64,000 bases of DNA from a virus (Duplodnaviria > Caudoviricetes): positions 19,268-83,267 of the IMG/VR virus record IMGVR_UViG_3300030376_004602. One strand, written 5' to 3'. A program made the translations under genes and the position numbers. The notes under the pieces are model-generated. The model was not told the DNA's origin and did not search any database. It saw only the letters and a list, made by a program, of their open reading frames with translations. This document shows positions 3,696 through 29,826 of the stretch, one piece after another. The stretch's first letter is position 1. Every line of letters begins with the position of its first letter.

Positions 3696-4492
3696 CGGCG
3701 GAGACTGAAGAGACAACAGAATCCGCTGAGCCTACACCAGTCTCAGAGCCAGAACCAGAGCCTACTATACCAGAGGTGCCGGCTGTAGAAGAAGTAGTTA
3801 TACCTGTAGAAGAAGCTATAGAAACAGCTGAAGAAGTAGTACAAGCAGTTCAAGAAGATTCAAACCCTGCAACTAATGAAGAAGTAGCAGCAGAAGTATT
3901 AGAAACTACTCCAGAGCTGCTTACTAATCCTATATCAGCTAGCCTTGACTTCTTAGGCATTACAGAAACAGATCCTACTCAGTATGATACAATAGCAAGC
4001 TTTTATCAGTCAGCCATTTCAGATACTACTCTCTTAGCAAAGACTAAGAAAAAACTTGCAACTGAAGTTGCCTGGTGCGCTGCTTTTGCTAACTATATTC
4101 TTAATGATGTAGGTATAGAAACTAAGCAAATGCTTGAAGATTATGATACTAAATATGCAAGAGTAAGGGCTAAAAACTTTATAGATTTAGGAACTCCTGT
4201 ATATAACTCTTCTAAGAATACTAAAAAAGATTTGCAGTCTGCTAAGATTGGGAGCCTTGTAGTTAAAAAAGGAGAAGAGGGGTACCACGTAGGATTCTTT
4301 GCAGGTATCAATCCAGATAACGAGGATGAAGTTCTTATACTAGGCGGTAACCAAAACGATGAAGTAAATGTTACAACCTATCCTCTCAAGCAAATTGTAA
4401 CTATAAACAGCTTAGAAAATGTTCAAGAAGCAGACTCTAAGGTAGTTGAAAAAATCAGTAAAGATATTAAAGAAAGCGGCGCTACTAGATAA
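3692..4492 (+). CDS. Acidic Pro/Glu linker plus CHAP/TIGR02594-like cysteine peptidase (peptidoglycan hydrolase); probably a -1 frameshift extension of the 1014-aa protein, alternatively starting at GTG 3776
   Basis: Motifs TEVAWCAAF (Cys at 4076-4078), YHVGFFAG (His at 4286-4288) and LILGGNQNDEV. Stop-free linker-like codons run from 3692 to the GTG. Confidence 0.8.
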   Translation, partial: LTAETEETTESAEPTPVSEPEPEPTIPEVPAVEEVVIPVEEAIETAEEVVQAVQEDSNPATNEEVAAEVLETTPELLTNPISASLDFLGITETDPTQYDTIASFYQSAISDTTLLAKTKKKLATEVAWCAAFANYILNDVGIETKQMLEDYDTKYARVRAKNFIDLGTPVYNSSKNTKKDLQSAKIGSLVVKKGEEGYHVGFFAGINPDNEDEVLILGGNQNDEVNVTTYPLKQIVTINSLENVQEADSKVVEKISKDIKESGATR

Positions 4493-4496
4493 ATCT

Positions 4497-4504
4497 TATC
4501 TTTG
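4497..4504 (+). promoter_or_regulatory. Bacteroidota sigmaA-type -7 element TATCTTTG
   Basis: Exact TAnnTTTG match in the short gap 17 nt before the RNAP ATG. No clear -33 element. Confidence 0.6.
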
Positions 4505-4521
4505 CATAATATAATTTTCCC

Positions 4522-7500
4522 ATGGCTAAGAAAAAAAAGACTCCTCCACCAATAACTTCTTTAGATAATAGCAGAGGGTACTCTGGCAGATTACATGCAG
4601 GAACCTTTTCAGGAGCTACTAGAGATGCTACAAGTCTTTTTGGAAATGCTGTATTTGCTGAAACTCTTAAGGGCCTTCAAGAAAATGCCGAGTCTAGATC
4701 TAATGACTATAAGATCCTTAGACAACAGGCTGCTAATGAACAAGGTGGATTTGAAAAGTTTGGAACTGCTTTAGTATCAGGAGTATCAAAAGGCCTTGTT
4801 AATGGTGTAAATGGAATTGTTTCTCTTGTACCCTACCCAGATGATGTATCTGCAGAAGGACTGCAAAACTGGAACTGGGATATTATGTCAGATGATTTTT
4901 CTGACAGATCTATGTTGTCTAATTATTTAGATGAAGGCTCTAAGGCTATAGGACTACAAATGCCTATATATGACGAAAATCCCTATAACTTCTATGCAGG
5001 TATGGACGCAGGTCTTACAAGTATTGGAGAGTTTGCTATTCCCGGTAAAATTATTAGTAAGGGAGTAGGTCTTGCTGCTAAAACAGTAGGAAGAGCACTT
5101 AGGGGAGTTGGTAGAGGTGTAAGAGGAGCTACTTCGTTAGGCAGAATGTCTACTAGATCTAGACTTGCAAAGTTTGGAGCTAGGACAGATGACTTTCTAA
5201 CTAGGATGTCTATGAGTCCTAAAAATCAAGCTTTTCTACAAACCGGTGCTTCTGGTTTTGCTATGAATAGATTTGAGGGTACTGTTATGGGCCACCAGGT
5301 TTATGAAGAAACAATGCAAGAGCTAGCACCTGCAGTAGCAGCTGGCCAGCTTACAGAAGAAGAAGCTCAAAGCTATGCCAACCAAGCAGCATTATCTGTA
5401 AGAAATAAGAATGCTGGAATGATGATGACCGACATGTTTGCTATGTATGGCATCTTTAAGGCTAAAGGTATGACTAGGAATCTTCTTACTAAACCTGGTT
5501 TTACTTCTGCTGTTAAAAATAATCTTCTTAGTGCAAAAGCTTGGAATCCTCTTAAGAAAGCTGCAGCTACTAATCCTTTTTATCAAGCACTAGTAGAAGG
5601 TGGAGAAGAGATTATTCAAAGTAATATTCAAAAGCAATCTCAATATGATGCTTTAAAAGGAGCTGAAGCTTTAGCAGCATCTAGAGTAGGTAAAGAAGAA
5701 GAACTTGTATATGTTCCTGACTCAGACTCTTACTACGAAAGATTAAAAGATAATCTATTTAGTAAGGATGCTGCTTTTGAAGGCGCTATTGGGTTCTTTT
5801 CCGGTCCTATACAAAGTGTTGCCCTTGAGCAAGGTATGGGCATAAAGCCTCTACTAGATAATCGTAAGTATAAAAATTACACTAAGGAAATTAATGCTCT
5901 GCAACAGAGTATTAAACCTGGAGGATCTGTAACAGGATTAGCAAAAAAATTAAAAGTCCAGGAGCAGATTGAAGACCTTAAACTAAAGCGAGCACAAGAA
6001 ACATCTAAAGGAGCATACGAAGAGCAGCAAAGAGTTATAGGCGAAGTTAAAGCTGATGTTAAAAATGCTCTGAAAGAAACTGTAAACATGGAGGACCTTA
6101 TAGAAGAGGTTCAGGAAAAAGGAGTTGAAGGGGTAGAAGAGTTGCTAGAAGGAACTGCATTTGTAAATACTGCAGTAAAACATTTTCAGAATGGTACTAC
6201 AGAAAATCTAGAACGTATGTTAAAAGACCTTGCAGAAGGCAAGGGAGACCCAGCTACGTTTGGAGAAAACACTCAGCAGAAAGCAGCTGATCTTTTAACT
6301 GAAATGTTAGAAATGGAGAAGCAATGGCTGCGTTACCATGACTTTGAAAACAAAGCATCTATTTTTGCAGCAATTCAGAATGAAAAAGAGATTGATAAAG
6401 CTATTAATCGTACACAGTCTCAGAAAGAAAATGCTCAAGCTAAAATTCTTACTCAGCTAAACGAGTATGCGCCTAGTAATAACTATGGTTTTGATGAGAA
6501 TGGTAACCTTACTATTACCCCAAAGTCTGAAGAAGAGAAAAAGTTAGACGATGACCTACCCGGTCAACAAACATCTTTGTTTCCAACAAACGATGAAGTC
6601 CGTGCATTTTATGAAAGAATGCCAGAAAAAAAGGAACTGGATGAGGTTAACCAAACTCAAAACACTTTTAGAGAGGTTAAAGGCGAAGTATCAAAGTTCC
6701 TCAATAATATTGCTTCAGGCAAAGGACAGAGAGCTGCTAAGAAGCTTAGAAAGCAAAGAGAAAAAGCTGCAAGAAGAGCTGCAAAAAGAATTATGGCTAC
6801 TAATAAGGTTGAGGCTGGAGAAAAAACTAAAGCCAAAACTAATTCTGAAAAGTCTGCTATATCTAACGCTCAAGCTAAGGTAAATTCTGACTCTAAGATT
6901 GTAGTAAAAAAAGTAAAGCCTAAGGCTCCTACAGCCCCACCGCCGCCTACTTCTGCTGAAAAGAAGTCAAAAGAAGAAAAAGAAATAGAAAAAGGGAAAG
7001 CTGCAGAAACAAACAGGAGAACTACTGCTAAAAATGGCGAACCTCTAAAATCAGTTTTTGCAAAGGCAATAGCAAAAGCTGCAGCAAAGTCTAAAGAAAA
7101 AGAGCCTGTAAATGATGATAGTGCTTCCGAGGGGGAAAATTTTACAAAGTCTACAGAAAATAAATCTTCTCATATTCAAGGTAGAACAGACGGTGTTACT
7201 AATGATTCTGAAAATGCTTTCTGGACTCTTTCTGATCCTAGTCTTACAGCTGAAGGAGATGTAATAACTTTTCAGGTAGAGGACCAAAATATTGGGGCTG
7301 CAAATGACCCGACTAGCCCTACAAGAGGTCTTAAAGTAATTGATGTAAAAGGTCGTAAAAAAGAAATAGCAAAGCACGAAAACTCTACGTACGGATCTAA
7401 TATTTCTGAGGACCAAGCTGCAGATGATGCCGAGGCTATTGCTATTTATAATGAAAGAGGCGACAGAATAGGGTATGTGGGATCTCCATTAGCTATTTCT

Positions 7501-10500
7501 TCTAAAAGAAGAAATATGACTACGGAAGAGATGCTAGAGGAAAAAGAAAACCTTCGTACAATAAGAGCTCAGATCCTATCTAAAACTCGTAATGGAGAAG
7601 CTGCAAAAGGTAAGATTAACTCTATAACCAAACAGTATACTAACTTCAAAGAGGAAGGGTCTCCAGACTCAAGATCCATAGACGTATTTGGAACAGATGT
7701 TATTATTGGTGTTGCTACTGCAGAGGGAGTTACATTTGAGGGAGGCTCTAATAACCTTACTCAAGCTGCAGGCTCAAAAATAGAAGCTAAAATGGAGGAC
7801 TCTGAAAGACTAGACGACCTTACACCAGGTCTTCCTTATGCTTTTGTCCCTGTTAGAAAAGATAACAAAGGAGCCATCTACTATGAGGCATTCCCCCTAT
7901 TACCTCAGGATCTAAATGCAGGTTTTATTAATACAGTTATCTATGCCCTAAAGTCTTGGGCAGGCGGTATCGATGCTAATATTGATAAACAAAATAGAGA
8001 CGAGGCTTCAGCAACATTAGGGCTTAATCTTAAAAAGAATACTAAACTTCGCAGCTTGTCTATGCTGTTAGAAAGATTCTTTTTACCACGTACAGAACAT
8101 CCTTACGTAGCAGATGATGAGACTAGAACTTATATCTATTTAAACCAATCTAATTCAGAAAATGAAGTAATTGAGCTTGTTGAAAATGTTGGAGGACAGC
8201 AGTTCGTAAGAGGGACAATTAGAAGAGGGGAACAGTTAACTGAGGATACTATTGCTACCTTAGAACAGTTTCTTGCCAATGAGCAGGTACAGATTGACCT
8301 AAGAAATATTGATGGAATACCTTACATCATTACAGACCGTGATGGTAATGTAAAAGAGTCAATCGAGTTGGCCGACTTTAAAACCCACGTTCTAAAGAAT
8401 ACTACTACAGGTCTTAATCCTGTGGAGTCTGTACTTAACGCTACAGGCCGTACTATTTTTTATAAATCTCCTAAAGTTACCTTTTCTGTAGAGAGTGATA
8501 GATCTTTAGATACCTCAGCACCTGAAAATGAACAGGAAGAAGAAAAGCCGCCATGGGATACTTCTAAAGAAAGTGACCTAACTATAGAGCAAATATCTAA
8601 ACTACCATTTGTAGAAAGAATACCAGCCCTTATTAAAGCAGGTATAATTGCATCTGATGTAACATATAACGTAGGTAAAAGATTTCCTATAATAGTAAAT
8701 ATTGGAGGAGTAAAAGTAGGATTCTACAGAAGCTCTGAAGGAACAGGAGGTAAGAAAAAAGGTGCTTGGACACCTATGTTTGGATACGGCGAGGATGGAG
8801 GTAATCCTTGGTTAATTAAAGGAAATATTGCTACACAAGTAAATGTTAACTATGGCAGCAGTGCTATACAAGAGTATGCGGATATACTTAACAAAACTCT
8901 TAATTGGGACCTTAGTATAGATAAAGGACAAGTAAAAGATCACCCTTTTTATAAAGAACTTAGACTAGTTGAGAGCACGCAAGCATTTAACAAGGAGTTA
9001 TATGGGGTGGAAAATCTAGGTATTATTAATGGTGAAACAGATGTTAGCGGTTTTATTAATTCTAAAGTACAAGAGATTAACGCCGCTACAGGTAAACCTT
9101 CATACGATGAGGCCGATCAAGTAGATCCTGATATCCTAAGCGACCTAGAAACAGACGATGATTTGCCATCTTCATCCGAAGACTCTTTTATCCGAGGTAT
9201 TGAAAAAGAGGAATATACGGAAGAAGAGAGGAATGAATTAGAAGACATTATTTCAAGGTATGTTAAAGATCCAGAGGACGGTTATGATGCAGTAATATAC
9301 TTTACCCAAGGGACTACACCCCCTGGACGCGGAATAGAGGACTTTTTATCTGTTGAAGCTAATCTTAATAGAGACCCCCTCTATAAAAAATGGCAGGAAA
9401 AACATACTGAACGTATAAAAAAAGAATCAACTAGGGATACAGCTCCAGATGTTGACGATTTAGTAGGAGACGCTGTACCACCTGAAGTAAAAGAAGAGCA
9501 CAATAAACGACATATTAAAGGCCTTACTCCTACTCAAAACTTTGAGATAGTAGGGCACTTGGCTAATACTATGTTCAGAAAGCTAGTAGAGCTTACTACT
9601 GATCAAAGAGTTAAGAAAGTATCTAGAAATAAACTATATCAAGAAGCGCTAGAAGAAACTATGGCTTCTTTTGATAAATATATTGCAAGACTAGAAAAAA
9701 ACTTAGCCAGAAAGCAAGCTCAAGAAAACGAGGCTTTAAAGAATAAGATGGAGGCTAGAATAGCAGGTCTTAAAAAGTACAAGCAGGCTGTAGAAAACGA
9801 AGCTGCAAAGACTAAAGAGCTTGCTACTCAGAAGCTTAATCAGTTTGAGGGTGTTAAGGGCCAAAGGTCTGAAGAGGATTTAGAAAATATAGAAGAGACT
9901 GCACACGAAAGAAGAAACTTTAGCGAGGACTTTTTCTTGACTGTAGACAGTAAGAAGAGCACATCTAAAGCTCTAAGAAAGTTCCTAAGCAGCATACCTT
10001 TAATCAAGACTAAGACTCAGACTATTAAGAAGGGCGATGATAACATTACTGTGTCTAGTAAAGCTATGCCTGCCCGTACTACATTTGGTGCTCCAAAGTA
10101 TGCAGACTTTGATTCTGTGTATAATAAACTACACTCTCTTGAAGTAGGATCAGATGCTAATTTATCTAACCAACTTACTAAGCTAGCACAGCTGTACGTA
10201 GACTATCCAGGTATGAAGCAGGAGCTCAACTGGCTACCAGGTCTAATAGTAAGTCTAGGAATAGATAACTTGCAAGGCACTAAGAAAAATAATAGAGGAG
10301 AAGAAAAAACCCTAGCAGATGTATTTTTGGAAGAAGCTTTAGGGCCAGACGATGCTGACCTTAGTAATCTAGTTAAGCTTATGGCTTCTACTGACTTTGG
10401 AGTTCCGGCAGGAGAAAAAATCCAAAGACAGTTTGCTATTAATATGTCTAAGGCTAAGGTAAAGGCTCCACTAGTTCTTTATCGTGCTGTACAAAAAGGA

Positions 10501-13500
10501 GGCAAAATTAAGTTTGAGGTAAACCTTACAGACCATAATAATACTGATAACTCTAAGCAGATCATAAATGAAATGCAGGAAGGCTTCCTAAATAAGCTGT
10601 ATACATATAATCCTGAAACAGAAGAGTACGAGCCAGATGAGACTGCTTTCGAGAGAGCTATTCAGCTTTTAGAAAGCTACAAGAAGACTCCTCCAACCCA
10701 GAAAAATAGTGATAACTACAAGGACCTTAGAAAGCAACTACAAGAGGTCCTAGGTATATCCATCTCTACTCAAACTTTCCATACTCTTGCTACAAAAGGA
10801 TATAGACTTGGAAGGCGTAAAGTTCTTCTTAATAGAAAAAATAAGAACGTATTTAGTATTGACGGGGCTCCATTTAGAGTGTTATTAGACGCTCTTAAGA
10901 GTTCTAAAGGCAAGCCATTCAACCCTGAGGTAAATGTCTTTACAGATAATGCTATTAAGAATCTAGCACAGATGGAATCTCTATCTCAGACAGCTACTCT
11001 TAGTAATGCTTTCCGTGTAGGCGATAAGACTATCTATACATATACAGAGCATAACTATGCTACCTCTCAGATTCAGACTATTCTAACTGATCCAAAGTAT
11101 AGAGAGCAGCTACAGAACACTGTCTTTGCAGGTGAAAGTCTTTGGCTACACATGATGTCTCCTATGGGAGGACAAGTCCTAGAGATAGACGGAGATGTTG
11201 ATGCTGGTTCTAGTATTGAACTAGGTATTCTAAACTTCCGCCCTGTCAAAGAAAGAAAGGAATCTAACCTAACTACTGATGACCTAGATGGTCAGAATAT
11301 GGACGATAACCTCTTTACAAGGTTGGCTCTATTTACTGCAAATGCTAGTGCTAGTAGAAAGTCTATTGTAAAAAAGGACGAAAACAACAAAAATATTTAC
11401 TCTTTTAAAAGCCGTAAAAGCACTACTGTACCTCTTGCTTACTCTGATAAACATTCAGTACTAACAGTAACAACAGCAATGCCTGTCTTTACTATTGGTA
11501 AGGGGGACGGGGTTACCTCGGATACCATTAATATTTTTTACGAACATGTATTGATGGCAGAGATCTCTCGTATTCAAAATATGTTTGATATCGATGGAAC
11601 TAACGATGCTGCATATGATGCCGGTAAGTCTGCTTTCCACCTAATGCCTGAGATGAATACTACTACGGTAAAAGATAGAGGTGGAGAAACAGACACTGTT
11701 GCAAACTATGCTGCTAGAGGAGCTTTTGATCCAACATCTGTTAATTATGATGAAAAGGTTGTAGGAGCAACAAAGAGAGCACTGGGAGATCAACTTAATG
11801 TTCTTATTAATGAGCAGATAGAAGACTTTGCAAAAGCAGGTATTAACCAAGTAGCAGGAAAGAGTGAGGCTACTTTTGTATCTAGCGAGTACATCAAGAT
11901 GCTAAAAGCCCAGCATAAAAATGCAGGAGTAAAATTAGAAGGAAATAAGATTACTAAAGCTGTAGCTGCTGATTATGTGCTTAATCATATGCTGTCTACT
12001 GCAAACATGTTCCAAATGTTTGTAAAAGATCCAGCACTGTATACTAAAACAGATGGTGAAGGAAATGTAGACGCTGCTTCTACCTTAGAAAATATTCAGA
12101 AAAGACTTGCTGCAGTCATTGCACCAGGTACTGCTACTGCTATAGAAGAAGGTAATGATGCATATGTACAACTCTTTGCTAATGATGTTAAGTATTCTGA
12201 GTTCTTAGGAGAAGGAATTAAGGAGTACTTCAAAGGCATTAAGAATAAAAAGCACAGAGAGTCTTACAAGGGCGCTGAGATTACCGATGGTCAGGAGTTA
12301 ATTACCTACCAGGAGTATCTAGGCACAATGGTTAGCCAAGGTCAGATTACAAAAGCAGAAAGAGCTCAGATAGAAGCTGTCGTAAAAGATCCAAATAAAA
12401 AGATTCCAGAGTGGATGATGGACGTTCTTTTTGGTGCAGAAAAACCAGTTGCTGTAGCTGATAAGTTCGTCACACTTAAAGATGGTCAGAGAATAGAAAA
12501 ACGTGTCTATGTTAAAAGCTCGGGTCTACCTTTAATTCCTAAATTTACTAAAGGTACAGAGCTAGAAAATCTTAGAAAAGCTTTAGAACAAATACAAGAA
12601 AAAAGCGGTCTTCCGGTTAGACTTGCATTTAGTTCAGCAGTAAAAGTAGGATTGCCTGAAACTGCTAAAAACACTAATATCCAATATACAGAAAAGGATA
12701 TAGAATCTCTAAAAGAGGAACTACCTGAAGGACTATCTGCTGAAAGAAGGAATGAAGAAGAAGAAAAACTAGATGCTTTACTAGGTACTATTAAGCCTGT
12801 TAAGGAACTAGTGTCTATGTTTAATGGAGACCTTACAGAAAAAGAACTTAATAGTGATGAGGCTTTCTTAGAAGATGAATCTCTTCGACCTCCTAGGCAG
12901 ATTCTACAACGTAAGTATTGGAGAATCCAGCAAGCTACTCCTAACAAGAATAAAGACATAGCTACTAGAGGTACTCAGGAGTCTAAGATTATTCTGTCTG
13001 AAGTAAAAGAAGCTTTTGGAGAAGAAGCAGGTACTAAGCTTATTGAAGATTGGAACAGCCTACATAGTAAACTATTTGGTCTTCGTATTCACGAACTAGA
13101 AAGAGAGATTCTAAACCCAGACGGGTCTATAGACAGAAAGGCCTTAGCTGAGTTCCTAGACAGAGATGCTAATGAAGGAGGAGTTAGTGTCAATACTAGA
13201 TATGGATTAGAGGTAGATCAAAACGGAAAGTTCGTTATACCTCTGGATCTATCCGCTGGTACATTAGAATATCAAACTCTTATTAATGCTATAGCTAATA
13301 AGAGGATTGCTCAGAAGAAAGTAAAAGGACAGTCTACTGTATTAATGACTGAGTTTGGCTTCTCTATTAGAGAGGGCCAAGATCTATCAGACAGTGGTAT
13401 TGTTTGGACTCAAGGGTTTGATTTTCAACATGGTAAGCTTAAGCCTGCTAGAGTAGAAAACGGAGTTGTTAAGCCTGCTCAGGTTATCGTGCCTAACAAG

Positions 13501-16500
13501 TTCTTTGTAAACGGTAAGAGGGTAAATCTTAAAAAGTACATTATCAAAGGTGAGCAAGGCCAGATGATTCTGGATACTAATCGTATGCCTGCTGAAATAC
13601 TAAAAGGGTTTGGATTCCGTATTCCTACTCAAGGGTATAACTCTATGGCAGGTATTGAGATCGTAGGTTTCTTGCCAGAATCTATGGGAGACGTTGTCGT
13701 AGCCCCAGGTTCATTTGTAAACCAAATGGGATCTGACTTTGATATTGATAAAATGTTTAACTACTTCTATAAGCTAGAAAGAAGTACAATATCTCGAAGA
13801 GCGGTTACGGATGCAACTATTGCAATTAGTGACGAAATAGCGGCAATAGAGTCTGGTAAGTCTAGCCTAGAAGACTTTAAGAAAAGAGGAGATAGTGAAG
13901 AAAATTACCAAGCTTATTTAGAAGATATTAATGATCAGATAAAGTCTTTAGAAGAAGAGCTACAAAATCTGAAAAGTAAGAGTACTACTTTTGTAAAAGT
14001 AACAGCGGATGATTTAAAAGATAAACCTTTTAATGAGCTTACTGAAAAGGAGATTGCTAGACTAGAAGATGCCTTGCTTAATGAAGGTCTCGACATGAGA
14101 CTAAAGATTATGGGCAAGAATGAAATCTACCAGACTATGTCTGCGCCTCTTGACTTTGGTCTATTAAAGTATAAAGACGAAGAAGGAAACGATACAGGTC
14201 TTAAGTTCTACTTTAAGGATAAGAGGATGTCTACTAGAGCATCTAGCCGTAACCCTCTTGCACCTGGATATCATACACAGAAGTATCAAGATGCTAGGGG
14301 AGCAGGAGCAGGAGTTGGTGTATTTGCTAGAGGTATTACCTTCCAGTCAATGGCTCAATCAGGTGTAGATGTAATTCCAGGAGCTGACTTTAAGCTTGGT
14401 AGATTTAAGTCAAATAACATTACTGACTCAAAAACTGTTACTAATAATAAACGCTCTAAGATAGAAGTCCTTACAGCATTCTTATCTGCCTCTCTTGATA
14501 ATGAAAAAGAGCAGATCATGAACTACCTAAATATTAATGATGATACTTTTAGTACAGCTACAGCTATGATTCACTCTGGCTTTGAGGAGGATCTTGTTTT
14601 GGCATTCTTGGAAAGTCCTGTTTTAAGACTACTAGCAGAAAATAAAAGATCAAGAACTAAAAAAACTCAGATAGCCTCATTTTCAATATTTAATAGGCTG
14701 GTATTAGACTTAGTGCCAAAAGATTATAAAAACCTGACCGAAAAAGAAAAGGAAGAAGAAAGAGAAAAAATAATAGACGAGGCACGTAAAGAGCTAGCAG
14801 GCTCTTCTTTTGAAACTAAAGAAGAAACTTTTAACAGGTTAATCCAAAACTCTGATGTTACTTTAAAATATACTCCTCCTAAGATAGGAGTAAGTAGTGC
14901 TAAAATACAGTTCTTAAATGAGGAAGGGAAGCCTTTAGAAAAAGATGAATTAAAAAGAGCAAAACTTTTAGCTATTGGGTCGCTAGATTTAACAGGACAA
15001 TTCAAAGATATATCAACGGATATACTTGCAGCACAAAGACTACTAAATGTAGATTCAGGAGGACTTGGTAAAAATGCTTATGAAGCGTATTCAAAACTAG
15101 AAGACTATATAGGCTTAGCAGATTTACAATTTGGAATATCGTTTCCTCACCCTATTTTTAAAGCTCTTATAGGAGAGCACAGGACTCTGGTTTATCCTGC
15201 AAAGATGGAAGGACAAGAAGAAGTAAATGCTGAAGAACTTGCAGAATATTTAACAAACGAAACTGAGCTAATAAATCAAGGCTTCATTAGGATAGCAAAA
15301 GCTCCAGGTAATACAGACGTATACTTTTTAAAACCAGTTTCAACTCCAGCTACTATTTTTGCAGAGTCTATGGGGCTTACATCTCGTATATACGAGGATA
15401 CAATGCCTGTATTAGTTGACTATGTTTTAAATAATGTAGACCTATCCTATCCAGCAATTCCTAAAAGTCTTCGAAATCAGTTTCGTGCAGACAAAAAGGC
15501 TAAGATTGTACATGATACTCTTAGATCCATTCTATTCTCTTCTACCGAAAACTGGATATCTGGTCAGTTTGAAGAGGCTACGGGACTAAGTACTCAGCCA
15601 ACACAGCAAACTAGTGATACAATAAATATATATGCAGGAACAAATGAGAATGCTGAGTTAAGTAATTTTGCTAACAGACCTGTAATGGATCCGTTAGGGG
15701 CTGAGTTCAAAAATGTAGAAGCAGCATTTCAATATGCTAAAACAAATTTTGCAGACGGAGACAATGAGTCTATCAAAATGAAACTCCAAAATGCTACTGG
15801 TGCACAAGCTAAGGCATTAGGTAGAAAGATTAAAGGTTTAGATGTAAAAGCTTGGGATGAAAACTCTGCAGCTATAATGAAGGGCCTCATAAAGGACTCT
15901 TTTGAGCAAAATCCTAAAGCTCTTGAAAAGCTATTAGCTACAGGTAATGCTACATTAACTCATACACAAGATAAGACTAAGTACCGCGAATTGTTTCCTA
16001 AACTATTAATGGAAGTAAGACAGGAGTTAGGCGGTTCTCAATCAACAGCCTCAAGCCTGGTGCAGATTCGTAGAGCACTTATGTATGGAGATAACACTCT
16101 AGCACTGCGGGTTAAGGAAGCTATTAAAGATCGTAGACTTTCTAAGAACCCATTCCTAAAGTCTCTAGTTCTATCTACTAAAGCAGGCGAACGTCATAAG
16201 GTGACCTTTGCAAACTTTACTCCTGATGGTATGATGGATGAGGACAAAGCAGATGCATTTGCTCAACTCTTTCTTATGCCTGACCAGAGTCCAATAGAGG
16301 GATTAAAACTAACTCCCGCACAGCTAGGAGCTCTTCTTGTAACTTACTCTATGGTAACAGGAGGTAACCAAAAGGCTCTGGAGTTTGTTAGGTTTGTTCC
16401 TAACTCTTATCTAGTAGGAACAGGTTTCTATAAAGCTATCAATGATAAGCTTACTGAAACTTTATCAACTCGTTCTGGAAAAACAAATCTTAGTATGTCT

Positions 16501-19500
16501 ATTATGTCGCAGCTTGTTCAACACAATCCTACGTTAACTTATAGAAAGAAAAGAACTCAAACAATTAAGAAAATAGAAGGGTCAGATAACTTTACTATTT
16601 CTGGTTTAAAAGTAGAAGGATCAAAAAGTTTAGGCACCTTAAGAGCTGTTGATAAAAGCCAAAGGGTACCAGAAACCGTTCCCTTTTTACATACTATTTC
16701 TAAAAAAGGAAACATTTCCTTGTATTACTTTGATGAAGATCTTAACACTCCTGGTAATAAAGCTATATATACTAAAATTGATGTTTTAGGAGATGGAGGA
16801 GACTTAAACGAGTTTTCTGCAGGTCTAATTAATGCCCAGTCACAAAATGCATTTGGTATTTCTGTTGTACCGTCTAATAAAAAGGCATACGTAGAGGAGT
16901 CTCTTCAGCAAGAGGAAACTTCTGAGCCAGATGCTAAAGGAAAAATAGACTTAGAATCTCTTATACAGAAAGTAGTAAATAAAACAGTAGAAAAAGTAAT
17001 CAAAGTAAATACAGAGCCTGGAGTTAAGGTATCAAGAAAACTAGAGTTAAATTCAAATGGAGAAAGTGATCCTATAAAAACTATAGAAGCAGTCGCTACA
17101 GGCTCTGACAGTCCTATGTTTAGACAACTTGCTGCGGCATTCTTAACTAGAAAAGACGATCTTAAAAATATAACGTTTAAAACCAAAGCTCTTAAAGATG
17201 GTAAAGATGCTGGAGGATCTTATACTTATGATAGCAAAACTATAGAGCTAAGCTACTCTAACGACAAGTTATATAATGAATATGCTATCCTTCATGAGTT
17301 TGGACATGCTTTGACTAAAGATGCTATAGTAGCATTTGAAAAGGGGGGTACCTACCCTAATGCTAAGGTTAAGCAGGCAATGAAAAATATTGCCGAAGTT
17401 CAGAATCTATATGTTCAATACCTAGAAGCACTAAATCCTGTAGAGCTTGAGGCTTTCAAGAAAAAGTATGATGAGTATAGGAGAAGAAAGGGACTAAGCG
17501 GTAAAGATAGAGCTAAACTACCTCCTCTAGACTTTAGTAATAAAAAAGAACTAGGTAAGTACTACGGAGGTCTTAAGCTATCGGAGTTTGTTACTATGGT
17601 ACTATCTGATGAGGTATTGCAAGCAGAGCTTGATAAAGTAATGCCTACGTTAGAAGGAGCAGCTGCTGCATCTGAAAAGAGTTTGTTTAGAGAACTACTA
17701 GATGCTATTAAAGAAATTCTTGAAGGTCTTACAGGAGTTAGCCTGTCTAAGTATACTGTCGAGCAAGCAATGACTATTGTCACTCAAGGTATGGATACAA
17801 AAGTTCAAGGTAATCCTGGGTCTACTGCATCTACAGATACTACTAATGATAGTGCTAAAGAATTTGCTAAAAAGTTTGCGCCTAAGATAAATCTTAAAAT
17901 AAAGGGAGATAAGAATAAAGATTTATTACCAGGAAGTGAAGCCTCTAATGTGTTTGACTCTAATCCTAAACTAGCCAATCAAGTATATGGAGCTTTAGGA
18001 CTTACTGTTGTGAACGAGTCTTCTACTAACATAGCTTCTACAATTTATGAGTTGATCCCAGATATTACAGAAAGCAAAATTGATGAAATATATAATAACT
18101 ATGTTTCACTAATAGGAAAAGCCAGAAAGGATAAAGAAATATCTAAAGATGCTTTCAAAAAATTATTGAGAAAGTACCAAGTCTTTAACTACAAGGATAC
18201 CTACATATTTGGGCAGTATGATATGGACAATGGGCTATTTGTAACTAGAATAAACTCATCTCCTACTTCTAAAGAGCTACTAGCTGAAGCTTTACCTACA
18301 TTAGTAAAGCAAGGGATTGATTTTGCATCGTTTGTGCCTAAGGATGTAGCTCAGAAATATAAGAGAAGTGGGTACTCTCTAAGTAAAGAAGGTTTTGCCT
18401 ATAACTTTAAGGGGGAAGATATGGTTAAATACCTAGCTGTTTCTAATCCAAACATATCTCTAAAAGTCTTTGGTAAAACTTTAGAAGAAATCTCTGCTAA
18501 AGAAATAAAAGACTTTAGCAAGGATCAGACACTAAGCTATAAACCAGTGGAGATAAAAGGAGAGCTAATAGAAAAGGCAGGTAATGATTTATCTAAGATA
18601 CTAGAAACATACCTTAATCAATTTGGTATAGTAGTAAAGGATGTAAGTACTATAAAAAATGCTCTAAATATTGATGAATTAGGATTTGCTGATATCTTGT
18701 CTAAAGTTGCTTATGTAGAAAACAACAAGGATCTTCCTCCTATTGCAGGAGAGTTTATTGCCTACATGATGCAGTATAACCCTCTAGTATCTGAGATAAT
18801 AAAAGAGCTATCACAAACAGAAAACTATAAAAAATTAGACAAGTCAGAGTATTTTAAAATTGTAGGAGGATTAATCTCTGATGATCTACAAAATAAACTA
18901 GATGAAAATTATTCTCAGTCTTTACTACAAAAGTTAAAGCAGTTAATACAAGAGTTTTTCAGCCTACTAAGAGGTACTCGTATAGATTTAATAAACAAGA
19001 ATGTAGGTATCATTTCTAACAATATTCTACAACAAAATAAAAAGCTAATTACAGCTTCTTTGTATAAGCCTGGAGCTTATGGAAAGCCTACTAAACAAGT
19101 TAGTTTAAAAGAGGCAATGGCTTCTGATAAATTTGGTTCTTCTATCATCAACAAGTTAGCTAAGGAAGGCTTTATATTAACAGGTTCTACCTCTCTAGGA
19201 GAACAAGGTACTATACAAAGACCAGATGAAAATCTACTGCATGATATTGACTGGGTAAGTCCTTTTAATAGAGAAAAGACTGCTGAAAAGTTTTTAAAAC
19301 AGTATCCAGATGCTATAAAAATTAGAGACATACAAGGAGATAGTTTTGTTACAGATACTTGGATTATATCCCCTGAAGGATATAGTATAAAAAATCTAAA
19401 CAAACAATCTGATTACAATATAATTACTTCTTACGATGTTGTTGATAACAAAGGAAATATTGCAGGTACATACAGACTAGAAAAAAAGGCTAAACAAAAA

Positions 19501-19959
19501 AGAAAAGAAGAAGTTGTATCAGGAGTTGAAGCTAAAGTTATAGACTTCTTCTCTTATGATGACTTCAATCAATTAACGCCTTTTGTAAAAGATAATGTGG
19601 AGCTTGCTAATTGGAAAGAAATTTTTAAAGCCAAGCTGCAGTTTGGAAGATATAAAGATATTTGGGACTTCAATAGATTTATACCTAATGAAAATCTTTC
19701 TGAAATAACTCCACAACAAAAGCAAATAGCTCAACAAAGATATTCTGACTATGTAGCTCAGACTGGGAAACAAGATATAGAAGGGTTTAAAGACTTTGTC
19801 AGAGAACCAGCCCAGCAAAGAGATAGTTTACCAACTTCAAATACTGTAGATTTGGGGGTAGATATAGTAGATTTCTTAAAACAACTAAGCCCAGAAGAGC
19901 GTAAGTTCTATAACAAGCTATTCCAAGAAGGACAGTTCACAGTAAAATGTAGAAAATAA
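4522..19959 (+). CDS. Virion-packaged two-barrel RNA polymerase polyprotein (5145 aa), crAss-like
   Basis: GFRIPTQGYNSM (RxP at 13618-13626) followed by GSDFDIDK (DFDID at 13735-13749), the crAss/phi14:2-type RNAP catalytic motif. Size and context fit. Confidence 0.92.
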   Translation: MAKKKKTPPPITSLDNSRGYSGRLHAGTFSGATRDATSLFGNAVFAETLKGLQENAESRSNDYKILRQQAANEQGGFEKFGTALVSGVSKGLVNGVNGIVSLVPYPDDVSAEGLQNWNWDIMSDDFSDRSMLSNYLDEGSKAIGLQMPIYDENPYNFYAGMDAGLTSIGEFAIPGKIISKGVGLAAKTVGRALRGVGRGVRGATSLGRMSTRSRLAKFGARTDDFLTRMSMSPKNQAFLQTGASGFAMNRFEGTVMGHQVYEETMQELAPAVAAGQLTEEEAQSYANQAALSVRNKNAGMMMTDMFAMYGIFKAKGMTRNLLTKPGFTSAVKNNLLSAKAWNPLKKAAATNPFYQALVEGGEEIIQSNIQKQSQYDALKGAEALAASRVGKEEELVYVPDSDSYYERLKDNLFSKDAAFEGAIGFFSGPIQSVALEQGMGIKPLLDNRKYKNYTKEINALQQSIKPGGSVTGLAKKLKVQEQIEDLKLKRAQETSKGAYEEQQRVIGEVKADVKNALKETVNMEDLIEEVQEKGVEGVEELLEGTAFVNTAVKHFQNGTTENLERMLKDLAEGKGDPATFGENTQQKAADLLTEMLEMEKQWLRYHDFENKASIFAAIQNEKEIDKAINRTQSQKENAQAKILTQLNEYAPSNNYGFDENGNLTITPKSEEEKKLDDDLPGQQTSLFPTNDEVRAFYERMPEKKELDEVNQTQNTFREVKGEVSKFLNNIASGKGQRAAKKLRKQREKAARRAAKRIMATNKVEAGEKTKAKTNSEKSAISNAQAKVNSDSKIVVKKVKPKAPTAPPPPTSAEKKSKEEKEIEKGKAAETNRRTTAKNGEPLKSVFAKAIAKAAAKSKEKEPVNDDSASEGENFTKSTENKSSHIQGRTDGVTNDSENAFWTLSDPSLTAEGDVITFQVEDQNIGAANDPTSPTRGLKVIDVKGRKKEIAKHENSTYGSNISEDQAADDAEAIAIYNERGDRIGYVGSPLAISSKRRNMTTEEMLEEKENLRTIRAQILSKTRNGEAAKGKINSITKQYTNFKEEGSPDSRSIDVFGTDVIIGVATAEGVTFEGGSNNLTQAAGSKIEAKMEDSERLDDLTPGLPYAFVPVRKDNKGAIYYEAFPLLPQDLNAGFINTVIYALKSWAGGIDANIDKQNRDEASATLGLNLKKNTKLRSLSMLLERFFLPRTEHPYVADDETRTYIYLNQSNSENEVIELVENVGGQQFVRGTIRRGEQLTEDTIATLEQFLANEQVQIDLRNIDGIPYIITDRDGNVKESIELADFKTHVLKNTTTGLNPVESVLNATGRTIFYKSPKVTFSVESDRSLDTSAPENEQEEEKPPWDTSKESDLTIEQISKLPFVERIPALIKAGIIASDVTYNVGKRFPIIVNIGGVKVGFYRSSEGTGGKKKGAWTPMFGYGEDGGNPWLIKGNIATQVNVNYGSSAIQEYADILNKTLNWDLSIDKGQVKDHPFYKELRLVESTQAFNKELYGVENLGIINGETDVSGFINSKVQEINAATGKPSYDEADQVDPDILSDLETDDDLPSSSEDSFIRGIEKEEYTEEERNELEDIISRYVKDPEDGYDAVIYFTQGTTPPGRGIEDFLSVEANLNRDPLYKKWQEKHTERIKKESTRDTAPDVDDLVGDAVPPEVKEEHNKRHIKGLTPTQNFEIVGHLANTMFRKLVELTTDQRVKKVSRNKLYQEALEETMASFDKYIARLEKNLARKQAQENEALKNKMEARIAGLKKYKQAVENEAAKTKELATQKLNQFEGVKGQRSEEDLENIEETAHERRNFSEDFFLTVDSKKSTSKALRKFLSSIPLIKTKTQTIKKGDDNITVSSKAMPARTTFGAPKYADFDSVYNKLHSLEVGSDANLSNQLTKLAQLYVDYPGMKQELNWLPGLIVSLGIDNLQGTKKNNRGEEKTLADVFLEEALGPDDADLSNLVKLMASTDFGVPAGEKIQRQFAINMSKAKVKAPLVLYRAVQKGGKIKFEVNLTDHNNTDNSKQIINEMQEGFLNKLYTYNPETEEYEPDETAFERAIQLLESYKKTPPTQKNSDNYKDLRKQLQEVLGISISTQTFHTLATKGYRLGRRKVLLNRKNKNVFSIDGAPFRVLLDALKSSKGKPFNPEVNVFTDNAIKNLAQMESLSQTATLSNAFRVGDKTIYTYTEHNYATSQIQTILTDPKYREQLQNTVFAGESLWLHMMSPMGGQVLEIDGDVDAGSSIELGILNFRPVKERKESNLTTDDLDGQNMDDNLFTRLALFTANASASRKSIVKKDENNKNIYSFKSRKSTTVPLAYSDKHSVLTVTTAMPVFTIGKGDGVTSDTINIFYEHVLMAEISRIQNMFDIDGTNDAAYDAGKSAFHLMPEMNTTTVKDRGGETDTVANYAARGAFDPTSVNYDEKVVGATKRALGDQLNVLINEQIEDFAKAGINQVAGKSEATFVSSEYIKMLKAQHKNAGVKLEGNKITKAVAADYVLNHMLSTANMFQMFVKDPALYTKTDGEGNVDAASTLENIQKRLAAVIAPGTATAIEEGNDAYVQLFANDVKYSEFLGEGIKEYFKGIKNKKHRESYKGAEITDGQELITYQEYLGTMVSQGQITKAERAQIEAVVKDPNKKIPEWMMDVLFGAEKPVAVADKFVTLKDGQRIEKRVYVKSSGLPLIPKFTKGTELENLRKALEQIQEKSGLPVRLAFSSAVKVGLPETAKNTNIQYTEKDIESLKEELPEGLSAERRNEEEEKLDALLGTIKPVKELVSMFNGDLTEKELNSDEAFLEDESLRPPRQILQRKYWRIQQATPNKNKDIATRGTQESKIILSEVKEAFGEEAGTKLIEDWNSLHSKLFGLRIHELEREILNPDGSIDRKALAEFLDRDANEGGVSVNTRYGLEVDQNGKFVIPLDLSAGTLEYQTLINAIANKRIAQKKVKGQSTVLMTEFGFSIREGQDLSDSGIVWTQGFDFQHGKLKPARVENGVVKPAQVIVPNKFFVNGKRVNLKKYIIKGEQGQMILDTNRMPAEILKGFGFRIPTQGYNSMAGIEIVGFLPESMGDVVVAPGSFVNQMGSDFDIDKMFNYFYKLERSTISRRAVTDATIAISDEIAAIESGKSSLEDFKKRGDSEENYQAYLEDINDQIKSLEEELQNLKSKSTTFVKVTADDLKDKPFNELTEKEIARLEDALLNEGLDMRLKIMGKNEIYQTMSAPLDFGLLKYKDEEGNDTGLKFYFKDKRMSTRASSRNPLAPGYHTQKYQDARGAGAGVGVFARGITFQSMAQSGVDVIPGADFKLGRFKSNNITDSKTVTNNKRSKIEVLTAFLSASLDNEKEQIMNYLNINDDTFSTATAMIHSGFEEDLVLAFLESPVLRLLAENKRSRTKKTQIASFSIFNRLVLDLVPKDYKNLTEKEKEEEREKIIDEARKELAGSSFETKEETFNRLIQNSDVTLKYTPPKIGVSSAKIQFLNEEGKPLEKDELKRAKLLAIGSLDLTGQFKDISTDILAAQRLLNVDSGGLGKNAYEAYSKLEDYIGLADLQFGISFPHPIFKALIGEHRTLVYPAKMEGQEEVNAEELAEYLTNETELINQGFIRIAKAPGNTDVYFLKPVSTPATIFAESMGLTSRIYEDTMPVLVDYVLNNVDLSYPAIPKSLRNQFRADKKAKIVHDTLRSILFSSTENWISGQFEEATGLSTQPTQQTSDTINIYAGTNENAELSNFANRPVMDPLGAEFKNVEAAFQYAKTNFADGDNESIKMKLQNATGAQAKALGRKIKGLDVKAWDENSAAIMKGLIKDSFEQNPKALEKLLATGNATLTHTQDKTKYRELFPKLLMEVRQELGGSQSTASSLVQIRRALMYGDNTLALRVKEAIKDRRLSKNPFLKSLVLSTKAGERHKVTFANFTPDGMMDEDKADAFAQLFLMPDQSPIEGLKLTPAQLGALLVTYSMVTGGNQKALEFVRFVPNSYLVGTGFYKAINDKLTETLSTRSGKTNLSMSIMSQLVQHNPTLTYRKKRTQTIKKIEGSDNFTISGLKVEGSKSLGTLRAVDKSQRVPETVPFLHTISKKGNISLYYFDEDLNTPGNKAIYTKIDVLGDGGDLNEFSAGLINAQSQNAFGISVVPSNKKAYVEESLQQEETSEPDAKGKIDLESLIQKVVNKTVEKVIKVNTEPGVKVSRKLELNSNGESDPIKTIEAVATGSDSPMFRQLAAAFLTRKDDLKNITFKTKALKDGKDAGGSYTYDSKTIELSYSNDKLYNEYAILHEFGHALTKDAIVAFEKGGTYPNAKVKQAMKNIAEVQNLYVQYLEALNPVELEAFKKKYDEYRRRKGLSGKDRAKLPPLDFSNKKELGKYYGGLKLSEFVTMVLSDEVLQAELDKVMPTLEGAAAASEKSLFRELLDAIKEILEGLTGVSLSKYTVEQAMTIVTQGMDTKVQGNPGSTASTDTTNDSAKEFAKKFAPKINLKIKGDKNKDLLPGSEASNVFDSNPKLANQVYGALGLTVVNESSTNIASTIYELIPDITESKIDEIYNNYVSLIGKARKDKEISKDAFKKLLRKYQVFNYKDTYIFGQYDMDNGLFVTRINSSPTSKELLAEALPTLVKQGIDFASFVPKDVAQKYKRSGYSLSKEGFAYNFKGEDMVKYLAVSNPNISLKVFGKTLEEISAKEIKDFSKDQTLSYKPVEIKGELIEKAGNDLSKILETYLNQFGIVVKDVSTIKNALNIDELGFADILSKVAYVENNKDLPPIAGEFIAYMMQYNPLVSEIIKELSQTENYKKLDKSEYFKIVGGLISDDLQNKLDENYSQSLLQKLKQLIQEFFSLLRGTRIDLINKNVGIISNNILQQNKKLITASLYKPGAYGKPTKQVSLKEAMASDKFGSSIINKLAKEGFILTGSTSLGEQGTIQRPDENLLHDIDWVSPFNREKTAEKFLKQYPDAIKIRDIQGDSFVTDTWIISPEGYSIKNLNKQSDYNIITSYDVVDNKGNIAGTYRLEKKAKQKRKEEVVSGVEAKVIDFFSYDDFNQLTPFVKDNVELANWKEIFKAKLQFGRYKDIWDFNRFIPNENLSEITPQQKQIAQQRYSDYVAQTGKQDIEGFKDFVREPAQQRDSLPTSNTVDLGVDIVDFLKQLSPEERKFYNKLFQEGQFTVKCRK
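8572..9093 (+). other. Inserted domain of unknown function within the RNAP (from about aa 1351)
   Basis: Globular-looking segment (VGFYRSSEGTGGKKKGAWTPMFGYG) between two acidic low-complexity linkers. Confidence 0.4.
15616..16035 (+). other. NADAR (YbiA-like) domain within the RNAP (aa ~3699-3838)
   Basis: LSNF, VEAAFQYAK, AKALGR, W....IM, FEQN, LLATG, THTQD and LLMEVRQEL appear in the order seen in YbiA/NADAR. Confidence 0.8.
17060..17790 (+). other. Zincin-like metallopeptidase domain within the RNAP
   Basis: AILHEFGH (HExxH at 17293-17307) and a later LSEFVT glutamate. Confidence 0.75.
19150..19680 (+). other. Pol-beta superfamily nucleotidyltransferase domain (MenT/AbiEii-like signature) near the RNAP C-terminus
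   Basis: ILTGS (GS at 19183-19188), HDIDW (DxD at 19243-19251) and KAKLQFGRYKDIWD (19627-19668). Confidence 0.65.
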
Positions 19960-22900
19960 TGAGTAAGAAATGCAGCATAGACCATAAGAAGCCAACACTA
20001 GCCCGACTAATGCACAAGTTTGGGGATGTAAGAGGCTTTTCTATCTATTATAAAGAAAGTGCTAAGAATGGCCAACTAGACGATTGGATAGAAAATAAGT
20101 ACTTGAAGGAGTATAATGATGCTACAGTAAACTCAAGAAATAAATATAAGACCCACCCAGAATCTGCTAGGGGGTATAGCGCACAAACAGAAGCCATAGA
20201 AGAAGCTCTTGGCCTAGCTAGCTGGACTGCTAAAGGAGGTTTAAATAAACGCTCTTACGATGAGTCTAACTCTGATCGTAAGATTAATGACTCTCTGCTA
20301 AAGGCTAGACAATACTTAGTAGAAGAAGGATTACAAGATCAATATGAAGCTGTAAAAGGTTTAGCCAAAACTAGAGGAAAGCTACAGGTAAGGATTAGGC
20401 CTAGACAAGATTCCGACTTCTTAGTAGAAAACGCTAATGTACCTTTTGTAGATGAGCTAAGACGCCGTGCTCAAGCCCTTACTAGAGAAAATCAGAATCT
20501 TACTAATAAAAGAAAATCTGAAGGCATTACTGAAGCTGAAGAACGAAAGATTATTGCTAGACAACAAGTCCTAAATAACGAGCTAGAACAAATTGATCAA
20601 GAGATTTATAATTTTCATAAAAGCTTCAACATCAATAATTTGATGAAACAACTAGATGAAGATCATGCTTTTATGGAGGACTTTTTATCTCAGGAAGAGT
20701 TTGAATCTGATGAGTTTTATGAGAAGGTACGTCAGGCTGTAGATAAGTTAGAGGTCTGGGAAGCTGCATCTCAAGCTCCTATCCAGGGGGTACACCCATT
20801 TCTTGATGAAGCAGAAGTAAAAAATGAGAATGCAGTAAAAGAAGTTACTAGTAAATCAAGAGACTTCTATTTAAGATATGCTGACGCTATTGCTGAGAGA
20901 AGAAACACTGCTATTGTAGAATTTACTCGAGAGCATACTATTAGCGATAACATGAGTGATCAAGAAATCTTGTCTATTGTTGAAGATATGACGGGTTTAA
21001 GAGCTGGTGTTTTAAACCTTGGACAGGCTGAACAGCCTTTACTACAAGGTGTATTTGCTGCTGTTACAAAGGCTAACCTAAAGTTTCAGCAACAAGCAGA
21101 CACAGATTTACAAAGATTGTCTGAGCTGGCTAAGAATATATCTCAAGATACCCTTGACGCTATGTATCAAAAAGATGCTCAAGGTAGACATACTGGTAGA
21201 CTAGTAAACCCATACTCTCTAGAATACTATAATGAAAGACAGGGTGTAATCTCTGCAGTAGCAGATGCTAGGGCTGAGTTAGACTCTCTACCTGAGGATA
21301 CTCCTGATGTTGTCTTTAACACAGTAAAGAAAAAACTACAAAACGCTTTTAAAAAGCAGGCTGCTTGGTATAAAAAGAATCAAATGAGTCTTAGTCCTGT
21401 AGGTATTATTGCAGATGAAGATACCACGGATGGTACTCTACCTGCTGAATATCTAGACGATAGAGCTGTAGATGATGATAGTGAAACCAAGATAAGAGAA
21501 CAACTAGTAGAAAGAGTAGGAGAAAGACAGACTAATAATATTATCAAGAATATAAAGAAGAGGACTATACAGTTCCAAGCTGCGAGAGATGCTTACTATC
21601 TTGACCTGCTAGGTTCTCGTTCCCCCGAACAAGGACTTGATGAATATAGCAAACAACTATTCGAGTTTTGGCTTGAGCAAAATTCTCCATATAAAATACT
21701 AGAGCCGGGAAGAAAGCTAACCTCCTTCAAGGATATAGACGGATTCACTCAGAAATCATATGCTAAGTATAAGTATGTATCTGCCATACCTAATCCAAAT
21801 GAAGAAAGATTCTACGACCAGAACTACCAGGCTGTACTAGCTGATCCAAATGCTGCAGAACTATATGATATGTTCCGTACGTTTATGGCAGAAGGTAGAG
21901 ATATGCTAGGAGATGTTGACGGATTTTTAACAGGTCTGTCTATTCCGCTTCTTGAAGAATCTCTACGTAAGCAGATGTTCCAAGAACAAGGCCTGATGGC
22001 AGCAAGAAGTTTTCTAACAGACTCAATTATAAAAAGTCTACGAGAAGCATCTAGCTCTAGCAACCAAAACCAAAGAATCAATCCTGCTACAAACAGGGAG
22101 ACTAAGGTTATTAATGTATCTAATCTTTCTCAAAATATTATCTCTAAACAAGTAAAGGTTAGACAAGAGGAACTAATTGATGAGTATAAGCAGAATAATC
22201 CAGGTAAGCCTATTACACTGGAGCTAAAAAGAGAACTCAAAAAAGACGCACTCGATGATGTATACCGTAAATCTGCTACCAACATTATTGGAGCAATGGC
22301 ATACTATAGAGTAAACTCTCTAATGGCAGGTAATCGCCGTGTACTAGAGCCTCACATGGCTATCATTAAGAACTTTGTAGCTGAGCAGATGGTAGAGGAA
22401 AAGACTCTGGGTATAGTAGATAAGGTAAAACAAGTTACAGGTAAGCCTACAACTAAAGAAAAACAACAGGCTAACAATATGATAAAGGCGCTTGACCATT
22501 ATCTAGATGAGAGCTTGTATGGAATTTCTACAAAGAAAAAAGGCGCTACTCTAGGTAAAGTACTTACCTCAGAAGAAAAGCAGAGAGCAGAGTCTATAAA
22601 AACTAGACTTGAAGAAATTAATGAGCAGTTAGATAAGCTAAAGAAAAAACTAGCTACAGGAGAATATTTAACTGGAGAAGAGGAAGCTCTGTATGATAGA
22701 CTAGAAGAGCGTAAGAATTTTCTAGAAAAAGAGTTTGAAAATATAGGAGGGGAGATATCAGCAACGAAAGCTGCAGACGGCTTGTTAAGATTAACACAAG
22801 CACTTGGTATTGGTTTTTCCGTGCCGTCAGCCGTTGCTAACACTGGGTTCGGATATATAGCCAATATGATTGAAGCAGGTAGGGGAAGAGATTACAATGT

Positions 22901-29822: not shown

Positions 29823-29826
29823 AGTA

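Follow-up and report, generated by a model that had tools for sequence, protein, structure and literature searches.

The IMG/VR virus record IMGVR_UViG_3300030376_004602 (Duplodnaviria; Caudoviricetes), an 83-kb contig with a Crassvirales genome, holds within its positions 19,268 to 83,267 (64,000 nucleotides, hereafter the window) a giant open reading frame (ORF) of 5145 amino acids. This ORF reads as a virion RNA polymerase of the crAss type, and set into it is a NADAR domain that, judged from its sequence and a structural model, is complete and carries residues of the catalytic type. As an account of the whole, and by analogy with characterized phage enzymes, we lean towards an intact, probably active NADAR glycohydrolase cassette that is packaged in the virion polymerase and would erase base ADP-ribosylation from the start of infection.

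Results

Identity and fold of the NADAR domain

Residues 3689-3843 of the giant ORF match the Pfam NADAR profile PF08719 with 54.9 bits (E 1.6e-14), well above chance and above the gathering score of 35.1, bearing out the NADAR domain that an earlier sequence-only reading of this DNA had recognized from its motifs; the strings which that reading quoted lie where it had placed them, all in frame of the ORF. The match covers profile positions 9-124 of 163 and was recovered again in a six-frame search of the genome. PHROG 1017 matches over the domain with 72 bits, sequence searches reach the solved NADARs 8BAU and YbiA (2B3W), and a profile comparison with YbiA gives an E value of 1.3e-15. The AlphaFold model, computed with 25 relatives, is confident through the C-terminal helix (mean predicted local distance difference test, pLDDT, 92.5; predicted template modelling score, pTM, 0.87). 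Its significant Foldseek matches are NADARs only: 8BAU with a template modelling (TM) score of 0.80 (E 2e-8), YbiA with 0.77 and a Geobacter NADAR with 0.57.

The residues found experimentally to be important in NADARs are E43, K50 and E125 of the Phytophthora enzyme (PnNADAR), equivalent to E88, K95 and D171 of E. coli C7 DarG1 (PMC11543638, PMC11125620), and E36 and K43 have been tested experimentally in T4 AdfN. The sequence-only reading had pointed to the Glu and Lys of VEAAFQYAK and to an Asp following THTQ, and all three are in place (E3733, K3740 and D3817). The third catalytic position distinguishes the families: the YbiA family has Glu there, DarT1-associated NADARs have Asp and the phage gp30.3 type has His (PMC11543638, PMC11125620). 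In the window copy this position is H3814, which aligns with the His of T4 gp30.3, the alignment with YbiA being ambiguous there by one residue. The Glu, Lys and His are conserved at 99-100% over 246 relatives, which implies purifying selection on an enzyme. Because the gp30.3 profile PF08010 scores 18.3 bits against a gathering score of 36, we file the domain only as a His-type NADAR and not as a member of the gp30.3 family.

In a profile alignment with E. coli YbiA, the 8-residue Gly-rich loop between WG and N.LG is missing from the whole subfamily; the W is retained in 93% and the G in 80% of the 246 relatives. Where most relatives read W-G-K/T-E, the window copy reads Y-R-E-L. The sequence-only reading was right to remark on an unusual YWG...N.LG loop, with the distinction that the loop has been lost subfamily-wide and that Y-R-E-L is specific to a minority that includes the window copy. 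As the allele recurs in 10 copies that share only 50-79% overall identity, we take it to be maintained rather than decaying.

Insertion and exchange between backbones

The 5145-residue ORF is collinear with relatives of 4400-5000 residues and, by alignment with the closest of these, the NADAR domain is a clean insertion of ~150 residues. P0254 (79% identity), P0255 and P0256 (both ~58%) follow the window protein on either side and are devoid of NADAR: they have nothing between "...EEA.GLS" and "T.SS.VQIR", where the domain and its two linkers (residues ~3691-3841) replace two residues in the window protein. The S/T/Q linkers that the sequence-only reading took as the bounds of the domain are thus true insertion edges relative to these proteins. 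Among the 74 proteins nearest in the polymerase core, the window's own included, just two bear PF08719. The most similar NADAR copies (82-91% identical), in turn, belong to giants in which the polymerase core is ~27% identical or the flanks lack any similarity.

At the nucleotide level the module, of ~430 bp, is 93.6% identical to that of the IMG/VR contig L012 (393 of 420 columns), while identity in the flanks falls to 31-34%, a random level; the breakpoints are sharp and lie in the linker-coding sequence. Since near-identical modules are joined to unrelated flanks, the domain looks like a cassette recently exchanged between phage backbones. The GC content of the cassette, overall and at third codon positions, equals the gene average and is uninformative on foreign origin. 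The differences from L012 are unevenly spread: 8 of the 12 bases at 15982-15993 are changed (W-G-K-L to Y-R-E-L), compared with 27 differences in the entire 420-column module. This clustering suggests either gene conversion or repeated selection at one active-site surface.

The carrier protein

Homology to the phi14:2 polymerase structure (PDB 6VR4), the DFDID motif and the Crassvirales genome all identify the carrier, on sequence grounds, as a crAss-type virion RNA polymerase (Table 1). Detectable similarity to 6VR4 stops around residue 3410, ~280 residues ahead of the NADAR insertion. Further downstream, the invariant HEFGH agrees with the zincin domain found alongside virion polymerases in "polyvalent proteins"; the Pfam profile Peptidase_M78 scores 15.6 bits over this region, below its cut-off of 22. 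A conserved zincin motif may serve to cut the polyprotein and release parts of it by proteolysis. Polymerase core, NADAR and a conserved HExxH are united in one giant protein, whose gene follows the muzzle and cargo genes; polyvalent proteins likewise gather several unrelated enzymatic domains in a giant product of the virion module.

In crAss001, mass spectrometry of virions found homologous polymerase-associated proteins, which are believed to be partly unfolded when they are ejected (PMC10172136); in phi14:2, the early genes are transcribed by the virion polymerase. From homology to both we infer that the 5145-residue protein is likewise packaged and ejected. The sequence-only reading had spoken of a NADAR domain inside an injected RNA polymerase: the polymerase is supported by its homology to the phi14:2 enzyme, and the injection is probable by homology.

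At least two more slots in the backbone are variable. They lie at residues ~1380-1644 (window 8659-9453) and ~4445-5050 (17854-19680), and their content is absent from or different in the closest relatives. In P0255 the C-terminal slot is occupied by a cpYpsA SLOG domain (PF12694). In the window protein, the same slot shows a nucleotidyltransferase-like GS...DxD motif (ILTGSTSL ... HDIDW) and has no Pfam match.

Cysteine is scarce in the cargo proteins. The polymerase protein has a single one, near its C-terminus; the next ORF (19959-24269, 1436 residues) also has one, at residue 5, and the 1014-residue ORF at 651-3695 has none, compared with nine each in the DNA polymerase and rIIA of the same phage. 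A Cys lies within the last six residues of 188 of 230 retrieved giants of at least 2500 residues, whose mean Cys content is ~0.1%. One possibility is that terminal cysteines link cargo proteins end to end by disulfides; alternatively, cross-links might be avoided in proteins that must unfold for ejection.

Spread of the subfamily

The NADAR subfamily is carried by at least 361 clusters of proteins of 2.8-9 thousand residues, and an exhaustive search matched 1266 representatives at E <= 0.001. It is encoded on 156 IMG/VR contigs, in an ORF of at least 1000 residues at 74 of the 80 loci fetched, and an iterated search found the polymerase core as well in 152 of 156 retrieved giants of at least 2500 residues. 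The position of the domain varies among phages: it can be N-terminal, internal or C-terminal to the core, sometimes far from it, and frequently no other domain follows it. The copy of cr126_1 (Kolpuevirus hominis) stands at the N-terminus of a DFDID-bearing protein of 2402 residues, labelled "DUF1768 domain-containing protein" in GenBank (QOR59539.1). Among the other domains of NADAR-bearing giants are an AlkB-type oxygenase, PIF1/AAA_30 helicases, RNase H and the ADP-ribosyltransferase (ART) domain ART-PolyVal. At least one copy is free-standing: encoded on a 1.1-kb metagenome contig (L011:198-752), it has 184 residues and a C-terminal Cys and is preceded by an in-frame stop.

Genome and gene neighbourhood

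The phage is a crassvirus because its record encodes the crassvirus muzzle protein (PF25731, 498 bits) and a portal, capsid and terminase that are crAss-type by their PHROG matches. Genes follow one another on one strand in the order terminase, portal, capsid ... muzzle, cargo proteins and giant polymerase. Just upstream of the polymerase, a 238-residue protein (window 3776-4492) matches the tail-lysozyme family PHROG 1259, with a weak CHAP match, and is probably an ejected cell-wall hydrolase. Genes resembling rIIA (PHROG 612, 183 bits) and rIIB occupy 28554-32061 on the minus strand of this crAss-like phage. The DarT family PF14487 has no match anywhere in the 83-kb record, hence the NADAR has no DarT operon partner there. 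A contig scan made towards a survey of DarT in Bacteroidota returned only contigs of metagenome-assembled genomes labelled as other phyla, which are probably mis-binned phage contigs.

Table 1. Coordinates of the polymerase gene, its NADAR domain and the residues discussed; amino acid numbers refer to the 5145-residue protein.
Feature	Position in window	Strand	Basis
Giant ORF, 5145 aa: crAss-type virion RNA polymerase with add-on modules (polyvalent protein)	4522..19959	+	ORF listing, translation, PHROG 16227 'virion structural protein'
Polymerase core (residues ~2784-3410), homologous to phi14:2 gp66, PDB 6VR4 residues 1097-1708	12871..14751	+	PDB search with phmmer (E 6.3e-30)
DFDID, catalytic metal-binding motif of the polymerase (from aa 3072)	13735..13749	+	D3072, F3073, D3074 and D3076 invariant in 10 relatives
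N-terminal S/T/Q linker LSTQPTQQTS, upstream insertion edge	15586..15615	+	DNA similarity to L012 starts just after the linker
NADAR domain, His type	15616..16029	+	Pfam 54.9 bits, AlphaFold, Foldseek, YbiA profile
Glu3733 (in VEAAFQYAK, 15715-15741), aligned with PnNADAR E43 and T4 AdfN E36	15718..15720	+	kept in 99% of 246 relatives
Lys3740 (in VEAAFQYAK), aligned with PnNADAR K50 (phosphate-binding) and T4 AdfN K43	15739..15741	+	kept in 100% of 246 relatives
His3814-Thr-Gln-Asp3817 (THTQ at 15958-15969)	15961..15972	+	H kept in 99%, D in 94% of 246 relatives
Y-R-E-L replacing the usual W-G-K/T-E	15982..15993	+	minority allele, 10 of 246 relatives
C-terminal linker GGSQSTASS, downstream insertion edge	16030..16056	+	relatives and L012 comparison
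HEFGH, zincin metalloprotease motif (HExxH)	17293..17307	+	H4258, E4259 and H4262 invariant in 10 relatives
Sole cysteine, third residue from the C-terminus	19948..19950	+	residue count

Discussion

The window gene would thus encode a NADAR-type ADP-ribosyl glycohydrolase, probably active, as a self-contained and linker-flanked cassette in a surface loop of the polymerase polyprotein. By homology, the polyprotein would be a late product that is packed into the capsid and then ejected into the cell together with the DNA or before it. NADAR activity would then be on hand as soon as infection begins, ahead of any phage gene expression, and would return in quantity with late expression. The enzyme would most likely hydrolyse the N-glycosidic bond that joins ADP-ribose to guanine (possibly also to cytosine) in single-stranded DNA or RNA, and the outcome would be that DarT1-like or other base-directed ADP-ribosylating defences, which would otherwise stall phage transcription and replication, are undone. 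Every NADAR family tested can take ADP-ribose off guanine, in DNA as well as in RNA, and for some families cytosine is a target too. The sequence-only reading had noted that NADARs are DarT1 antitoxins and that T4-like phages encode one, and phage NADARs are indeed known to counter DarTG1: all three independent phage clades tested so far strip the ADP-ribose from modified guanine (G-ADPr) and allow phages to plaque again on DarTG1 hosts, leaving DarT2 thymine adducts untouched (PMC11825919). By analogy with T4 AdfN, an anti-DarT1 function is plausible for the window copy.

Several points weigh against this proposal. Neither T4 AdfN nor YbiA rescues DarT1 toxicity outside infection, so the in vivo target cannot be read off from family membership. 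The domain shares only 24% identity with T4 AdfN, and the gp30.3 profile stays below its cut-off; the Asp typical of DarG1 is absent from the distinguishing position, which is His in the window copy and in 99% of its relatives; and Y-R-E-L is a minority variant of a near-invariant W-G. Packaging of the 5145-residue protein is itself argued by homology. Finally, ~6 copies per virion are estimated for the polymerase-associated proteins of crAss001 (PMC10172136), and the few copies to be expected here by analogy would be little enzyme against a catalytic toxin.

The sequence-only reading had the domain acting at the transcription bubble, a view that finds no support: its position relative to the core varies, it is absent from the closest polymerase relatives and proteolytic release is possible, all of which makes co-delivery with the DNA, not geometry, the simpler explanation of the fusion. 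Arriving inside the particle, the enzyme would work ahead of transcription, which matters where the injected polymerase must read an undamaged template.

A wider proposal, which we put forward tentatively and with some doubt, is that the ~430-bp module is a plug-in cassette with linker-coding ends, now being exchanged among otherwise unrelated virion-polymerase genes of crAss-like phages. It would put counter-defence in place as the DNA enters, erasing base ADP-ribosylation before phage gene expression, and the W-G and Y-R-E-L forms would be specificity variants shaped by different host toxins. A sharp-edged, near-identical cassette in unrelated backbones suggests that the giant polymerase is a delivery chassis for swapped counter-defence domains; if so, the variable slots of giant polymerases are a place to seek new anti-defence enzymes. 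Crassvirales are among the most abundant human gut phages and, to our knowledge, almost nothing is known of how they evade host immunity.

The alternative that fares best, although we think it unlikely, is that the active domain has a substrate other than ADP-ribosylated phage DNA, either ADP-ribosylated RNA or a soluble derivative of ADP-ribose or of a nucleotide, for instance an immune signal or a by-product of RNA repair. Such a substrate was previously proposed for phage NADARs on contextual grounds (the NAD/ADP-ribose virus survey), and it fits the SLOG domains of relatives: the closest backbone relatives have the cpYpsA SLOG domain in another variable slot, and a NADAR of cr130_1 falls within a gene whose product carries the annotation DprA-like (SLOG) protein. 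For RNA, it can be added that NADARs hydrolyse ADP-ribosylated guanine and cytosine on RNA besides DNA. Each experimentally tested phage NADAR nevertheless acts on G-ADPr DNA and counters DarTG1, and the papers examined report no NADAR activity on cyclic ADP-ribose-type signals.

A second alternative, which we regard as improbable, makes the domain the eraser half of a phage writer/eraser pair, limiting or undoing what an ADP-ribosyltransferase injected by the phage itself does to phage nucleic acid or proteins. The candidate writer is a cargo protein of 1186 residues encoded upstream of the window (L004:13539-17099), whose residues 830-1086 sit where relatives carry a Pfam-verified ART-PolyVal domain and are matched by a jackhmmer profile seeded from a relative's ART-PolyVal (i-E 4e-21 and 4.5e-29). 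This stretch (L004:16026-16796) looks like a divergent ART-PolyVal interrupted by a helical hairpin of ~75 residues; the model of the protein has a pLDDT of 76, and the long hairpin dominated the Foldseek and VIA-align comparisons, which kept any ART match from surfacing. ART-PolyVal does occur alongside the NADAR subfamily in 8 of the 120 giants listed, and T4 likewise has both an injected ART, Alt, and a NADAR. The T4 NADAR, however, counters a host toxin and not Alt; ART-PolyVal is predicted to modify proteins, whereas NADARs cleave base N-glycosidic links. Pfam finds no ART in the window phage, and in the cargo protein Arg takes the place of the strand-1 His of the H-Y-D site (TYRG for the usual YHG).

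That the domain is a decaying or purely structural remnant would account for the lost loop, the substituted W and G and a Pfam match that ends at profile position 124 of 163. We consider this very improbable: the loop deletion is common to a family that is strongly conserved, Y-R-E-L is maintained in divergent copies, the model is confident to its last helix, and the reading frame is free of stops and frameshifts. A metabolic role in hydrolysing riboflavin-pathway intermediates, an activity known for YbiA-family enzymes that the profile match to YbiA might recall, is least credible of all, given that the YbiA-type Glu is replaced by His and that nothing about a virion polymerase polyprotein, which has no neighbouring flavin genes, calls for such a role.

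The glycohydrolase cassette that we favour can be set beside several known systems. It resembles T4 gp30.3/AdfN, Bas32 and Bas60 (PMC11825919, PMC11125620) in its NADAR fold, in the aligned Glu and Lys, in being encoded by a lytic phage and, for gp30.3, in the His. Those proteins are free-standing and of ~150 residues, the T4-like ones having been assigned to the early genes in a survey, whereas the window copy lies inside a late, probably packaged polymerase of 5145 residues; it is also remote from T4 gp30.3/AdfN in identity and PF08010 score (see above), and its Gly-rich loop after WG is shortened. More generally, the papers examined describe the phage anti-DarT factors AdfA, AdfB and AdfN as separate phage genes and not as parts of a packaged protein. 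With DarG1 (BC4488-type; PDB 8BAT; PMC11543638) the domain shares its superfamily and presumably its chemistry, guanine-N2-ADP-ribose hydrolysis; it differs in having His rather than Asp, no adjacent DarT and a weak structural match (TM 0.57).

The carrier, for its part, is like the polyvalent proteins of Iyer et al. 2017 (PMC5512222) in being a giant and probably virion-delivered protein, in which linkers set apart a polymerase, a putative zincin-like motif and enzymatic modules of unrelated kinds. That paper deals with N4-type polymerases and nowhere names NADAR among the domains, whereas the window carrier is a crAss-type two-barrel polymerase. It has a homologous core with DxDxD and lies in the same genome module as phi14:2 gp66 (PDB 6VR4) and crAss001 gp47/gp49/gp50. 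Against the 2180 residues of gp66 it reaches 2.4 times the length, with at least three variable slots for insertions.

A NADAR in a virion polymerase goes unmentioned in the polyvalent-protein paper (PMC5512222), the NAD/ADP-ribose virus survey, the AdfN paper (PMC11825919) and the crassvirus literature examined, and a full-text literature search returned nothing relevant joining crAss with NADAR, DUF1768 or YbiA; database labels do exist. One of them belongs to a close parallel, QOR59539.1 of cr126_1, whose NADAR is 48.7% identical to the window copy, is likewise fused to a DFDID-bearing polymerase protein and also has a C-terminal Cys; it differs in its N-terminal position, in the smaller size of the protein and in that its record, beyond a database label, proposes no function. 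Counter-defence by phage NADARs is already known, as are polyvalent virion proteins, and what is new is their combination, the crAss-type carrier and the behaviour of the domain as a cassette.

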